A stretch of DNA of 64,000 nt from Escherichia coli O127:H6 str. E2348/69 (GTDB lineage Bacteria; Pseudomonadota; Gammaproteobacteria; Enterobacterales; Enterobacteriaceae): NCBI RefSeq assembly GCF_000026545.1, contig NC_011601.1; one strand, 5' to 3'. Below the pieces are notes generated by a model, which worked only from the letters and a program-made list of their open reading frames with translations, was not told where the DNA came from and searched no databases. Positions 8,134 through 12,810 of this stretch are shown here, in pieces. Position 1 is the first letter of the stretch. Every line of letters starts with the position of its first letter. Both the position numbers and the translations under genes were made by a program.

Positions 8134-9087
8134 ATGACGGACAAATTGACCTCCCTTCGTCAGTACACCACCGTAGTGGCCGACACTGGGGACATCGCGG
8201 CAATGAAGCTGTATCAACCGCAGGATGCCACAACCAACCCTTCTCTCATTCTTAACGCAGCGCAGATTCCGGAATACCGTAAGTTGATTGATGATGCTGT
8301 CGCCTGGGCGAAACAGCAGAGCAACGATCGCGCGCAGCAGATCGTGGACGCGACCGACAAACTGGCAGTAAATATTGGTCTGGAAATCCTGAAACTGGTT
8401 CCGGGCCGTATCTCAACTGAAGTTGATGCGCGTCTTTCCTATGACACCGAAGCGTCAATTGCGAAAGCAAAACGCCTGATCAAACTCTACAACGATGCAG
8501 GTATTAGCAACGATCGTATTCTGATCAAACTGGCTTCTACCTGGCAGGGTATCCGTGCTGCAGAACAGCTGGAAAAAGAAGGCATCAACTGTAACCTGAC
8601 CCTGCTGTTCTCCTTCGCTCAGGCTCGTGCTTGTGCGGAAGCGGGCGTGTTCCTGATCTCGCCGTTTGTTGGCCGTATTCTTGACTGGTACAAAGCGAAT
8701 ACCGATAAGAAAGAGTACGCTCCGGCAGAAGATCCGGGCGTGGTTTCTGTATCTGAAATCTACCAGTACTACAAAGAGCACGGTTATGAAACCGTGGTTA
8801 TGGGCGCAAGCTTCCGTAACATCGGCGAAATTCTGGAACTGGCAGGTTGCGACCGTCTGACCATCGCACCGGCACTGCTGAAAGAGCTGGCTGAGAGCGA
8901 AGGGGCTATCGAACGTAAACTGTCTTACACCGGCGAAGTGAAAGCGCGTCCGGCGCGTATCACTGAGTCCGAGTTCCTGTGGCAGCATAACCAGGATCCA
9001 ATGGCAGTAGATAAACTGGCGGAAGGTATCCGTAAGTTTGCTGTTGACCAGGAAAAACTGGAAAAAATGATCGGCGATCTGCTGTAA
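8134..9087 (+). CDS. talB: transaldolase B
   Basis: 317-aa [46 protein letters not shown]-track 8071 start is an upstream extension. Confidence 0.95.
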
Positions 9088-9201
9088 TCATTCTTAGCGT
9101 GACCGGGAAGTCGGTCACGCTACCTCTTCTGAAGCCTGTCTGTCACTCCCTTCGCAGTGTATCATTCTGTTTAACGAGACTGTTTAAACGGAAAAATCTT
9201 G

Positions 9202-9789
9202 ATGAATACTTTACGTATTGGCTTAGTTTCCATCTCTGATCGCGCATCCAGCGGCGTTTATCAGGATAAAGGCATCCCTGCGTTGGAAGAATGGCTGACA
9301 TCGGCGCTAACCACGCCGTTTGAACTGGAAACCCGCTTAATCCCCGACGAGCAGGCGATCATCGAGCAAACGTTGTGTGAGCTGGTGGATGAAATGAGTT
9401 GCCATCTGGTGCTCACCACGGGCGGAACTGGCCCGGCGCGTCGTGACGTAACGCCCGATGCGACGCTGGCAGTAGCGGACCGCGAGATGCCTGGCTTTGG
9501 TGAACAGATGCGCCAGATCAGCCTGCATTTTGTACCAACTGCGATCCTTTCGCGTCAGGTGGGCGTGATTCGCAAACAGGCGCTGATCCTTAACTTACCC
9601 GGTCAGCCGAAGTCGATTAAAGAGACGCTGGAAGGCGTGAAGGACGCTGCGGGTAACGTTGTGGTGCATGGTATTTTTGCCAGCGTACCGTACTGCATTC
9701 AGTTGCTGGAAGGGCCATACATTGAAACGGCACCGGAAGTGGTTGCAGCATTCAGACCGAAGAGTGCAAGACGCGACGTTAGCGAATAA
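9202..9789 (+). CDS. mog: molybdopterin adenylyltransferase
   Basis: 195-aa ORF MNTLRIGLVSISDRASSGVY. Confidence 0.9.
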   Translation: MNTLRIGLVSISDRASSGVYQDKGIPALEEWLTSALTTPFELETRLIPDEQAIIEQTLCELVDEMSCHLVLTTGGTGPARRDVTPDATLAVADREMPGFGEQMRQISLHFVPTAILSRQVGVIRKQALILNLPGQPKSIKETLEGVKDAAGNVVVHGIFASVPYCIQLLEGPYIETAPEVVAAFRPKSARRDVSE

Positions 9790-9799
9790 AAAAATCCCC

Positions 9800-9807
9800 C
9801 CGAGCGG
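9800..9807. repeat. left copy of target-site duplication flanking IS50-like element
   Basis: ccgagcgg immediately before the element end; identical 8-mer immediately after the other end at 11358..11365. Confidence 0.6.
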
Positions 9808-11357
9808 CTGTCTCTTATACACAAATCCCCACCCGGGGATTTGTGATGTCTGTCAGTCTGCTTTAGGGGGACTCTTTCCATCCGGTAGTTTCCTTCCTCC
9901 CCGGCAGCGATTTTTTGAACTTTTTCCTCACCCGTTGATCTTCTCTTATATTTCATTTTCTTCGGGTCTGTTATGGTACTTTCTGATTGTTATTCATGGG
10001 CTAACGAGCAGTTTGGACATGCCCGTCTCGGTGATCCGCGTCGTACACGACGCCTTGTGTCACTGGCCTCTTCTCTCGCTCAGCATGCAGGTCTTTCTAT
10101 TGTGAAATCATCCCAGTCCACTGCTCAGGTTGAAGGTGCGTACCGCCTGATACGTAACCCGTCTGTGTCCCCGCAAGCCATTGCCGAAGCCGGATTTACC
10201 GCCACTGTAAGGGCATGTGAGGCTCATCCGCTGCTCCTCGCGCTGGAAGACACCACCACCATTAACTTCAGTCACAGTACGGCATCTGATGACCTGGGGA
10301 ATACCACCACTAACCCGAAGACGCGCGGGCTGCTGGCTCACTCTGTCCTGATGTACGCCCCCGACAGCGCCCTGCCAGTCGGTCTTATCGAACAGCAGCG
10401 CTGGAGTCGTGCCACGGACACCTACGGTGTTAAGCACCAGCGAAAAGAACGTCCCTATGAAGAAAAAGAAAGTTACCGCTGGCAGCAGGCTTCGGAGCGC
10501 ATGGCCGAATGGCTGGGGGAGATACAGAAACGGGTAATCACTGTCTGTGACCGGGAAGCGGATATCTGGCATTACCTGCATTATAAAGTCAGCCACGGGC
10601 AGCGCTTCGTGGTGCGTGCAGCACAGAATCGCCGGCTGGAAGAAGCACCCGGCAAGCTCTTCGAACTGCCGGAAGTCCTGGCAACCGCGGGAAGCCACAC
10701 GCTGAATGTGATGCAAAAAGGCGGGCGGGCAGCCCGCCAGGCCCGGATGTTCATCAGTTACAGCGAAGTCAGCATAAAAAATCCCGACAACAGCGGCCAG
10801 GCGCTCCCGCTCACGTATGTCTGTTGCCGGGAGCAGGCAGAGGACGGCGCCTGCTGGCATCTGCTGACGTCAGAAAAAGTGGCGAGTGCCGCCGATGCGC
10901 GACGTATCGTCAGCCATTACGAGCGACGCTGGCTGATAGAGGAATACCACAAGGCGTGGAAAAGTGGTGGTACATGTGTGGAATCGCTGCGAATGCAGAC
11001 CCGGGATAACCTCGAGCGCATGGTGGTTATCAAGGCGTTTATCGCGGTGCGGGTGCTGGGCCTGCGGCAGGGCGGTATCAGTGAAGAAACACAAAATGAC
11101 AGCTGTGAGAAAATACTGACGCCGACAGAGTGGAAACTGCTGTGGGTTAAGCTGGAAGGAAAACCGCTTCCGTCACAGATGCCGACACTGAAATGGGCCT
11201 GTCTGAAACTGGCGAAACTGGGGCGATGGCATGACAGCAAACGCACCGGTCGCCCCGGTTGGGTAGTCATGTGGGATGGCTGGTTCAGACTTCAGGATAT
11301 GGTTGAGGGTTACCTGGTGATGAAGTCTCTTGATCAGGAGATCTGATCAAGAGACAG
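9808..11357 (+). mobile_element. IS50/Tn5-like insertion sequence (IS4 family), apparently complete
   Basis: left terminus ctgtctcttatacacaaat (17/19 to Tn5 OE, 17/19 to ME); right terminus agatctgatcaagagacag is the exact reverse complement of the Tn5 inside end CTGTCTCTTGATCAGATCT; single transposase ORF reads from the OE-like end and stops inside the IE-like end as in IS50; flanked by direct repeat ccgagcgg. Confidence 0.85.
9973..11346 (+). CDS. IS4-family (IS50-group) DDE transposase
   Basis: 457-aa ORF with Tn5 Tnp hallmarks: LGDPRRT near N-terminus, ALEDTT and VCDREADI (catalytic Asp positions), RWLIEEYHKAWKSG (YREK motif with catalytic Glu); overall only moderately similar to canonical Tn5 Tnp as recalled. 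Confidence 0.85.
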   Translation: MVLSDCYSWANEQFGHARLGDPRRTRRLVSLASSLAQHAGLSIVKSSQSTAQVEGAYRLIRNPSVSPQAIAEAGFTATVRACEAHPLLLALEDTTTINFSHSTASDDLGNTTTNPKTRGLLAHSVLMYAPDSALPVGLIEQQRWSRATDTYGVKHQRKERPYEEKESYRWQQASERMAEWLGEIQKRVITVCDREADIWHYLHYKVSHGQRFVVRAAQNRRLEEAPGKLFELPEVLATAGSHTLNVMQKGGRAARQARMFISYSEVSIKNPDNSGQALPLTYVCCREQAEDGACWHLLTSEKVASAADARRIVSHYERRWLIEEYHKAWKSGGTCVESLRMQTRDNLERMVVIKAFIAVRVLGLRQGGISEETQNDSCEKILTPTEWKLLWVKLEGKPLPSQMPTLKWACLKLAKLGRWHDSKRTGRPGWVVMWDGWFRLQDMVEGYLVMKSLDQEI

Positions 11358-11365
11358 CCGAGCGG
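11358..11365. repeat. right copy of target-site duplication flanking IS50-like element
   Basis: ccgagcgg, identical to 9800..9807; the two flanks reconstitute the C6-GAGC-G6 hairpin expected at this site. Confidence 0.6.
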
Positions 11366-11381
11366 GGGGATCTCAAAACAA

Positions 11382-11948
11382 TTAGTGGGATTCACCAATC
11401 GGCAGAACGGTGCGACCAAACTGCTCGTTCAGTACTTCACCCATCGCCAGATAGATTGCGCTGGCACCGCAGATCAGACCAATCCAGCCGGCAAAGTGGA
11501 TGATTGCGGCGTTACCGGCAATGTTACCGATCGCCAGCAGGGCAAACAGCACGGTCAGGCTAAAGAAAACGAATTGCAGAACGCGTGCGCCTTTCAGCGT
11601 GCCGAAGAACATAAACAGCGTAAATACGCCCCACAGACCCAGGTAGGCACCAAGGAACTGTGCATTTGGCGCATCGGTCAGACCCAGTTTCGGCATCAGC
11701 AGAATCGCAACCAGCGTCAGCCAGAAAGAACCGTAAGAGGTGAATGCGGTTAAACCGAAAGTGTTGCCTTTTTTGTACTCCAGCAGACCGGCAAAAATTT
11801 GCGCGATGCCGCCGTAGAAAATGCCCATGGCAAGAATAATACCGTCCAGAGCAAAATAACCCACGTTGTGCAGGTTAAGCAGAATGGTGGTCATGCCGAA
11901 GCCCATCAGGCCCAGCGGTGCCGGATTAGCCAACTTAGTGTTGCCCAT
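11382..11948 (-). CDS. satP: succinate-acetate/proton symporter
   Basis: 188-aa membrane ORF MGNTKLANPAPLGLMGFGMTTILLNLHN (YaaH/GPR1 family). Confidence 0.9.
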   Translation of the reverse strand: MGNTKLANPAPLGLMGFGMTTILLNLHNVGYFALDGIILAMGIFYGGIAQIFAGLLEYKKGNTFGLTAFTSYGSFWLTLVAILLMPKLGLTDAPNAQFLGAYLGLWGVFTLFMFFGTLKGARVLQFVFFSLTVLFALLAIGNIAGNAAIIHFAGWIGLICGASAIYLAMGEVLNEQFGRTVLPIGESH

Positions 11949-12096
11949 AATTCCTCAAAAATCATCATCGAATGAATGGTGAAATAATTTCCCTGAATAA
12001 CTGTAGTGTTTTCAGGGCGCGGCATAATAATCAGCCAGTGGGGCAGTGTCTACGATCTTTTGAGGGGAAAATGAAAATTTTCCCCGGTTTCCGGTA

Positions 12097-12810
12097 TCAG
12101 ACCTGAGTGGCGCTAACCATCCGGCGCAGGCAAGCGATTTGCAGTACGGCTGGAATTGTCACGCGATAGGCACTGCCGCTGACCGCTTTAACCCCATTTA
12201 ATGCTGCGCCCACAGGGCCTCCCAGACCCGCGCCGCGCAGCAAACCATGCCCAAGCACGCTCATTGCTGCGTGGGTGCGTAAAATGCGGGTCAATTGGCT
12301 GGAAAGCAAATGCGACACACCTTTTGCCAATAATTTGTCTTTCATCAGCAGCGGCAGCAGCTCTTCCAGCTCATTCACCCTGGCATCGACCGCGTGCAGA
12401 AACTCCTGCTTATGTTCCTCGTCCATTTTCTTCCAGGTATTACGCAGAAATTGTTCCAGTAACTGTTGCTCAATTTCAAACGTAGACATCTCTTTGTCGG
12501 CTTTCAGCTTCAATCGCTTTGAAACATCGAGCAAAATGGCGCGATACAATTTACCGTGTCCGCGCAGTTTGTTGGCGATACTATCGCCACCAAAATGCTG
12601 TAATTCTCCGGCAATCAGCTGCCAGTTGCGGCGGTATCGCTCGGGATGTCCTTCCATCGATTTAAACAGTTCGTTGCGCATCAGTACGCTGGAGAGGCGA
12701 GTTTTGCCTTTTTCATTATGGGTGAGCAGCCGGGCGAAATTTGCCAACTGTTCTTCACTACAATGCTGGAGAAAATCCAGATCTGAATCATTCAGGTAAT
12801 TAACATTCAT
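12097..12810 (-). CDS. yaaW: UPF0174 family protein YaaW
   Basis: 237-aa ORF MNVNYLNDSDLDFLQHCSEEQLANFARLLTHNEKGK. Confidence 0.8.
   Translation of the reverse strand: MNVNYLNDSDLDFLQHCSEEQLANFARLLTHNEKGKTRLSSVLMRNELFKSMEGHPERYRRNWQLIAGELQHFGGDSIANKLRGHGKLYRAILLDVSKRLKLKADKEMSTFEIEQQLLEQFLRNTWKKMDEEHKQEFLHAVDARVNELEELLPLLMKDKLLAKGVSHLLSSQLTRILRTHAAMSVLGHGLLRGAGLGGPVGAALNGVKAVSGSAYRVTIPAVLQIACLRRMVSATQV

Follow-up and report, generated by a model that had tools for sequence, protein, structure and literature searches.

The window analysed here, the 64,000 nucleotides that form the first 64 kb of the chromosome of the enteropathogenic Escherichia coli (EPEC) O127:H6 strain E2348/69, carries an intact 1550 bp copy of the insertion sequence (IS) ISEc13 between mog and satP (yaaH). 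The element lies in the loop of a G/C hairpin that has the features of an intrinsic terminator of satP. Its position is strongly supported as the outcome of a target preference of ISEc13, for a dyad of the form CYCY-(8–10 bp)-RGRG (Y, pyrimidine; R, purine), and not of a special event. We consider the account as a whole likely, namely that ISEc13 inserted into a hairpin loop chosen by this preference, that satP lost its terminator and that read-through from satP into the element is limited. The mog/satP insertion itself is lineage-specific, ordinary and already annotated in RefSeq.

Interruption of the satP terminator

The gene order at the locus is talB, mog (plus strand), the 1550 bp element and satP (minus strand). 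A similarity search matched positions 9700–11500 at 100% identity, and at the same coordinates, to the E2348/69 record NZ_LT827011.1, and found ISEc13 with both mog/satP flanks in three E2348/69 records only. When the element and one copy of the flanking repeat are deleted, the site reads TAA-AAAAA-T-CCCCCC-GAGC-GGGGGG-AT-CTCAAAAC. This reconstructed empty site is identical to NZ_CP029164.1 over all 243 bases (100% identity, 100% coverage) and, at a coverage of at least 80%, has matches in 5408 of 5426 E. coli genomes. An intact ISEc13 has, within the E2348/69 lineage, inserted itself into the hairpin loop of the original mog–satP spacer, which measures 34 bp between the stop codons, and has duplicated 8 bp in doing so.

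The uninterrupted site folds on the minus strand into a hairpin with an 8 bp stem that includes six G–C pairs (ΔG of −15.4 kcal/mol) and is followed by a run of six to seven U residues (U-tail score T of 4.81 in the satP direction). The hairpin starts 12 nt past the satP stop codon and ranks in the top 0.5% of the 34 nt windows of the region for stability. It thus combines a G/C-rich stem-loop, a U-tract and a nearby stop codon, as is expected of an intrinsic terminator in the satP direction. A pattern scan of an IS-free copy of the hairpin (L033, strain 600055) gave a terminator-like call for the minus strand alone. Read in the mog direction, the intact hairpin has the tail CUCAAAACAAUUAGU (T of 0.56), and the scan made no plus-strand call; with a U-tract in the satP direction only, the site is not a bidirectional terminator. 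Because there is almost no U-tract and no scan call in the mog direction, canonical termination of mog by the intact hairpin was probably never efficient, and the formation of mog 3′ ends has probably not relied on it as a canonical terminator. We found no literature on satP, mog and the terminator, and none on the IS content of E2348/69.

A preliminary sequence-only reading of the window had placed a minus-strand hairpin with a U-run directly downstream of satP and had proposed that the element splits it, and both statements are borne out. Its rendering of the uninterrupted site has to be amended, since a T separates the A-run from the C-run and an A–T pair follows the G-run, giving the stem of 8 bp. 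It had further placed the element inside the stem; the hairpin is indeed interrupted, but by a staggered cut centred on the loop, which duplicated the loop and the two inner stem pairs. What remains at each junction is consequently a complete arm together with the loop and 2 nt of the second arm. The predicted loss of one arm and the U-tract from satP transcripts was correct as well: the 5′ arm CCCCCC is kept in the satP RNA, and the lost arm is the 3′ arm GGGGGG, which with the U7 tract now lies 1550 bp away. So was the convergent geometry, in which the stop codons of the plus-strand transposase gene and of minus-strand satP face each other 35 bp apart. The read-through that it proposed is plausible and the consequences it drew for 3′ ends and the transposase are tentative; the likely barriers to read-through and the weakness of the hairpin in the mog direction had escaped it. 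The site as it stands in the window has no contiguous pair of arms with a U-tract. A pattern scan of the window called no terminator-like site at either ISEc13 junction, and the residual CCCCCCGCUCGG on the satP side does not fold (ΔG of 0).

A different element is found in the same 34 bp spacer in strain 600055 (L033, 1700–2500), where an IS1 separates the satP stop codon from the intact hairpin. This IS1 is flanked by a 9 bp duplication (CTCAAAACA) and shows that satP was parted from its terminator on a second, independent occasion. As the IS1 also parts satP from the hairpin, the mog–satP spacer tolerates such a separation.

Target preference of ISEc13

A first similarity search aligned several ISEc13 copies at unrelated loci for 12–23 bases past the element ends. 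Twelve independent sites with both flanks and a clean duplication were then resolved, at mog/satP, rcnB/yehA, agp/yccJ, two ibs/sib loci, fklB/cycA, ybaY/atl, cirA/lysP, pgtA, the allK region, a prophage and the metagenome locus L036. All 12 carry CYCY at positions −4 to −1 and RGRG at positions +1 to +4. The duplication measures 8 bp at nine of the sites, 9 bp at agp/yccJ (L002) and pgtA (L012) and 10 bp at cirA/lysP (L008). Empty sites at 100% identity confirm one case of each length: the 8 bp of the window, the 9 bp of agp/yccJ and the 10 bp of cirA/lysP. Whatever the spacing, the strand-transfer joints abut the inner edges of the C-run and the G-run, and it is therefore the distance between the arms that sets how long the duplication is. 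The possibility that the C-run and G-run are longer inverted repeats of the element itself was also considered; it is ruled out because empty sites exist at 100% identity at the three loci and the flanks differ between them.

An exact-match scan of metagenomes was made with the left end alone, giving a sample chosen without regard to the flanks to offset the sites that had been selected by flank. Seven of nine distinct left flanks carry CYCY at 8–10 nt from the IS end, for an expected rate of about 5% per flank (P = 1.6e-8). The half-sites of rearranged ISEc13 copies mostly agree with the motif too. Most of the resolved sites are terminator hairpins, and most lie directly 3′ of genes, often between convergent genes. 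At the non-convergent sites the transposase gene is antisense to the terminated gene in about five cases and sense in two to three, a sample too small for a claim. The loose motif CCCY-N8–10-RGGG occurs six times in the window; the five other occurrences are unoccupied, three of them well inside long open reading frames (ORFs), a fourth in the final codons of an ORF and the fifth outside any ORF of at least 100 amino acids.

These sites could also be explained if the target were recognized as a structure, for example an extruded cruciform or a single-stranded DNA hairpin at a replication fork or behind RNA polymerase, with the C/G pattern being merely the look of terminator stems. A duplication of 8, 9 or 10 bp that tracks the arm spacing is not what a Tn5-type transposase, with its fixed stagger, usually produces and would fit such a mechanism, as would the exceptional stability of the hairpins at eight of the 12 sites (top 1.5%), where complementarity reaches into the duplicated segment. 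There is, moreover, a precedent for purely structural targeting of terminator hairpins in IS1272/TnSha1 (PMC4923244). The hairpins at the allK, prophage and ibs/sib sites are, however, weak (4th to 24th percentile) and yet retain the CYCY/RGRG arms, and the C-run comes first and the G-run second at every site, with no G-first hairpin among them. Tn5-family transpososomes, furthermore, capture double-stranded target DNA. Recognition of structure is on this evidence an unlikely explanation. A random insertion that was kept because the spacer is non-coding, with no target preference of ISEc13, is effectively refuted: non-coding positions such as the spacer are few here, and an IS1 has entered this one too, but the arms are found at every resolved site and at most of the unbiased left flanks, and the mog/satP insertion falls at the exact centre of the hairpin dyad, whereas the IS1 of strain 600055 sits beside the hairpin.

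On the simplest view, the dimeric transpososome favours a dyad-symmetric target with one C-rich and one G-rich arm. Such dyads in E. coli are mostly the stems of intrinsic terminators just after genes, and selection then keeps the copies in these non-coding sites, where insertions persist because no reading frame is broken. We found no description of an ISEc13 target preference in the literature, where the element receives passing mentions only; ISfinder was not covered and we therefore claim no priority. A review of the IS4 family mentions neither ISEc13 nor terminators (PMC2266710).

Family membership and comparison with known elements

By every feature tested, the element belongs to the IS50 subgroup of the IS4 family, with one departure, the 8–10 bp duplication. 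The ORF is named `IS4-like element ISEc13 family transposase' by RefSeq/PGAP, and the window copy is 99–100% identical to many PGAP-named ISEc13 copies. Residues 6–453 of the transposase align with the Tn5 transposase structures 1MUH and 4DM0 (E value of 7e-83 with phmmer), with the Asp-Asp-Glu (DDE) residues and the Y-(2)-R-(3)-E-(6)-K signature in register (EDTT, CDREAD and Y..RW.IEE.HKAWK). The protein scores 511 bits against NCBIfam NF033590 (cut-off of 160) and contains the Pfam domains PF14706 and PF01609 (Tnp_DNA_bind and DDE_Tnp_1). It is encoded by a single 457-residue ORF without a frameshift, and the short terminal inverted repeats of the element start with 5′-CT; ends of the form 5′-NT are found in the IS10 and IS50 subgroups (PMC2266710). 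A duplication of 8–10 bp corresponds to approximately one helical turn and is within the family range, although it is not the fixed 9 bp of IS50.

Neither end sequence of ISEc13 is repeated elsewhere in the window, and both start with CTGTCTCTT. ISEc13 shares with IS50/Tn5 this start of the ends, a transposase that is homologous over its full length, a single ORF and a stop codon inside the right end. We take the right end, with its GATC sites, to be the same as the IS50 inside end; the left end is presumably close to the Tn5/IS50 outside and mosaic ends. The two elements differ in transposase length (457 residues versus 477–481 in the Tn5 PDB chains) and in the perfect 11 bp and 13 bp hairpins that adjoin the ends of ISEc13, unlike those of IS50/Tn5. 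They also differ in their targets, Tn5 having a weak consensus within its 9 bp and ISEc13 a strong dyad motif just outside the duplication.

IS231A, an IS4-family element with a Bacillus host, has the target consensus GGG-N5-CCC, which is associated with DNA bending. It is like ISEc13 in its family and in a dyad-symmetric target with G/C runs; its GGG...CCC motif, however, is inside the duplication, whereas the CYCY...RGRG of ISEc13 is outside, and no link of IS231A to terminators is described. The insertion specificity of IS231A is noted in the family review, which cites Hallet et al. 1994 (PMC2266710). IS1272/TnSha1 of staphylococci inserts into terminator hairpins at many loci, without a target duplication, with partial deletion of the hairpin and without primary-sequence specificity (PMC4923244). 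ISEc13, in contrast, leaves clean duplications of 8–10 bp, allows its empty sites to be rebuilt exactly and has a sequence motif in its target; it does not work as IS1272 does, and its targets are not defined by structure only. IS1397, ISKpn1, ISPpu9 and ISPpu10 insert into repetitive extragenic palindromic (REP) sequences as safe havens (PMC1525189, PMC8450116). These elements have transposases of other families (IS3 and IS110) and target REP repeats, while the ISEc13 targets are unique terminator stems. Extragenic palindromes are also the safe sites of group IIC introns.

Predicted fate of satP and mog transcripts

Without its canonical terminator, satP transcription would enter the right end of the IS antisense to the transposase gene. 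The RNA would first meet a perfect 13 bp hairpin, which begins 2 nt in from the end of the element and has UUCAUCACC as its tail (T of 1.98); the pattern scan did not call it a terminator. Its sequence suggests a 3′-end stabilizer or a pause site more likely than a terminator, so that satP transcripts may be trimmed to it or paused at it. As a replacement terminator the right-end hairpin was judged unlikely because of the poor U-tract.

Transcripts that pass this hairpin might be ended by Rho or at an internal site. The antisense RNA from 11381 to 10836 is C-rich, G-poor and untranslated (C/G ratio of 1.3–1.9), a composition expected of a Rho substrate or loading region, which makes this a possible role. 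The first canonical stop signal that satP read-through would meet is a minus-strand site at 10738–10720, a 7 bp all-G/C stem followed by UUUUU, about 640 nt into the element. With the C-rich antisense RNA and this terminator-like site, any satP read-through probably ends within about 640 nt of the element. The whole scanned region contains eight terminator-like sites, compared with 3.5 ± 1.8 in shuffled sequences. Two weaker minus-strand sites of this kind are also present inside the transposase gene (10801–10783 and 10893–10881). An Rfam scan of 9000–12300 (E ≤ 1) returned no match.

Transcripts crossing the whole element would meet a re-formed stem at the left junction. There, on the minus strand, the G-run at 9866–9870 is read as an internal CCCCCU, which is predicted to pair with the flanking GGGGGG; the original U7 follows directly, and a terminator-like structure would thus be re-formed before mog. 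The G5 run with ACUCUUUCC corresponds on the opposite strand to a C5U arm that precedes the flanking G-run and U-tract.

From the other side, mog transcripts would run into a composite stem-loop of about 75 nt at the left end, with a predicted folding energy of about −44 kcal/mol. This stem is made up of the flanking C-run, the element end, the 11 bp end hairpin and the internal G-run, and the pairing of the flanking C-run with the internal G-run is part of the minimum-energy fold at all 11 of the 11 junctions tested. In variants 95–98% identical to the window copy, the internal G-run is kept or lengthened (G5–G7). The G5 segment may be a built-in half-terminator or may be there by chance; five consecutive G residues could easily arise at random within 100 nt of an end, and a function of the segment is therefore hypothetical. 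A more ambitious proposal, that ISEc13 homes to terminator stems through their C-run and G-run arms with a flexible 8–10 bp stagger and brings its own half-terminator (G5–7 and a U-rich tract), which partly rebuilds the terminator and insulates the copies from their neighbours, is speculative and in our estimate improbable.

IS10 and IS50 are protected from outside transcription, in that fold-back of read-through transcripts is inhibitory. An end-proximal RNA structure is likewise predicted in ISEc13 transcripts entering the transposase-proximal end, although the ISEc13 stem, known here from sequence prediction, differs in using the flanking C-run of the target. Antisense control of the IS10 RNA-OUT type would involve an antisense promoter of the element's own and a structured RNA made from it. 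In this regard, a consensus scan detected no σ70-like promoter in the IS (weak ones would escape it), and the antisense RNA considered here comes from satP, outside the element.

The extent of read-through can be argued in two directions. The insertion might be transcriptionally silent, with satP transcripts ended or processed at the right-end hairpin or promptly terminated by Rho, no meaningful antisense RNA and no change in satP or mog. The strength of the 13 bp hairpin (ΔG of −20.1 kcal/mol) so close to the junction, the C-rich, G-poor and untranslated RNA beyond it, the insulation of IS10 and IS50 from outside transcription and the tolerated loss of the terminator in the strain with IS1 are all in keeping with silence. 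The end hairpin is, however, AU-rich, its tail score falls well below that of the original terminator and no scan call was made, and termination by Rho commonly requires a stretch of free RNA of tens to hundreds of nucleotides; some antisense RNA over the 3′ end of the transposase gene is therefore expected. A silent insertion therefore has an appreciable chance of being correct, but the balance is against it.

At the other extreme, convergent transcription from satP and read-through from mog would measurably regulate the transposase and alter the stability of satP mRNA. The closely facing stop codons, the loss of the canonical satP terminator and a hairpin lacking a U-tract in the mog direction would favour such an effect. 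Against it stand the predicted barriers (the end hairpins, the internal terminator-like site and a composition like that of a Rho utilization site), the composite stem that sense read-through enters at the left end and the fact that only one of about 29 genome copies would be affected. Measurable regulation is accordingly less credible than silence, and the effect on transposase output is probably small.

Several points weigh against the account as a whole. Two of the metagenome left flanks (L040 and L070) miss the motif at the 8–10 nt spacing. Five of the 12 resolved sites (L001–L005) were first found through flanks resembling the query, which is a selection bias, and about five of the approximately 29 E2348/69 copies were sampled. 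Surviving insertions are filtered by selection, so the enrichment at terminators, unlike the sequence motif, may partly reflect the purging of insertions within genes. The consensus scan identified no σ70-like promoter for the transposase on either strand of ISEc13, weak promoters being beyond its reach. Finally, the statements on read-through, Rho, 3′ ends and transposase expression are all predictions from sequence.

Features of the locus

The coordinates of the features discussed above are collected in Table 1.

Table 1. Features of the mog–satP region of E. coli E2348/69 (positions in the 64,000-nucleotide window; ΔG in kcal/mol; T, U-tail score).
Feature	Position	Strand	Remarks
mog coding sequence	9202..9789	+	Stop codon TAA at 9787–9789; ORF list and RefSeq annotation
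A7 run that templated the U-tract in the uninterrupted satP terminator	9788..9794	−	Shares bases with the mog stop codon; 1.56 kb now part it from the arm nearer satP
CCCCCC arm of the split hairpin	9796..9801	.	Corresponds to the 3′ arm GGGGGG in satP RNA
Left target-site duplication CCGAGCGG, 8 bp	9800..9807	.	Empty site verified in other genomes
ISEc13, complete copy, 1550 bp	9808..11357	+	IS4 family, Tn5/IS50-like
Left terminal inverted repeat CTGTCTCTTATACACAAAT	9808..9826	+	
End-proximal hairpin CACAAATCCCC-ACCC-GGGGATTTGTG	9820..9845	.	11 bp stem, ΔG −17.5; weak U-rich tails in both directions
G5 run, then ACUCUUUCC	9866..9880	+	Predicted partner of the C-run and A-run in the flank; putative function
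Transposase gene, 457 amino acids, intact	9973..11346	+	Tn5 transposase homologue; stop codon at 11344–11346
Antisense intrinsic-terminator-like site, GGCGGGCTGCCCGCCCGCC and UUUUU	10705..10738	−	Inside the transposase gene; ΔG −14.8, T 3.83
Perfect 13 bp right-end hairpin GTCTCTTGATCAG-n5-CTGATCAAGAGAC	11325..11355	.	ΔG −20.1; poor tail in both directions
Right terminal inverted repeat CTGTCTCTTGATCAGATCT	11339..11357	−	Contains the transposase stop codon; GATC sites
Right target-site duplication CCGAGCGG, 8 bp	11358..11365	.	
GGGGGG arm of the split hairpin	11364..11369	.	Corresponds to the 5′ arm CCCCCC in satP RNA; remains attached to satP
satP (yaaH) coding sequence	11382..11948	−	Stop codon at 11382–11384; ORF list and annotation

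ISEc13 copies at other loci

The E2348/69 chromosome has 29 places that match ISEc13, and a copy covered over at least 80% of its length is present in 873 of 5426 complete E. coli genomes. A scan of species-representative genomes with a 38 nt pattern of the left end gave no matches.

At ybaY/atl (L006, L010, L011, L016 and L018), ISEc13 is found in unrelated strains at the same site, with the same duplication (CCGCCCGG) and in the same orientation, and the variants there are 99.8% and 98.1% identical to the window copy. The shared site could reflect either repeated independent insertion into a hot spot or sequence exchange between IS copies. Several further copies (L026, L027, L028 and L013) have left and right flanks from different target half-sites and no direct repeat; the copies lacking a repeat include that at hok/finO of pMAR2, a copy in O157:H7 and copies adjoining tRNA-Arg. 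Recombination between IS copies, or deletions next to them, could account for these arrangements.

The lldD–trmL spacer of E. coli B C3029 (L031, 301–335) contains a 35 bp perfect palindrome, CTGTCTCTTGATCAG-GAGAT-CTGATCAAGAGACAG, that is composed of two ISEc13/IS50 inside-type ends back to back. Its flanks are C-rich on the left (..CCCCTCACCCCGGCCTCCCC) and G-rich on the right (GGGAGAGGGTTAGGGGGAGGGGG), the same kind of target, and 33 bp matches at 100% identity are present in many IS-free genomes. The palindrome looks like a relic of an ISEc13-type element or a minimal derivative of one that resembles a MITE (miniature inverted-repeat transposable element).

The ISEc13 left end opens with 16 nt (CTGTCTCTTATACACA, 9808–9823) that are, we presume, the start of the Tn5 mosaic end that is used as the Nextera adapter. 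Since these sequences would be equal, adapter trimmers could clip genuine reads at ISEc13 left ends in strains rich in the element.

Significance

For the mog/satP locus the finding carries little weight, being an IS in a tolerant spacer of a well known strain. The target rule with its variable stagger is the more interesting result, and it explains the position of the element. ISEc13 appears to remove canonical terminators wherever it inserts, so that predictions of 3′ ends and operon boundaries derived from K-12 would be wrong at those loci in IS-rich strains, the EPEC prototype among them. As a close relative of Tn5 with a strong and simple dyad target rule and a variable stagger, ISEc13 is a tractable system for the study of target selection and bending by Tn5-type transposases, and it is also suited to the study of how insertion sequences multiply through safe-haven sites.

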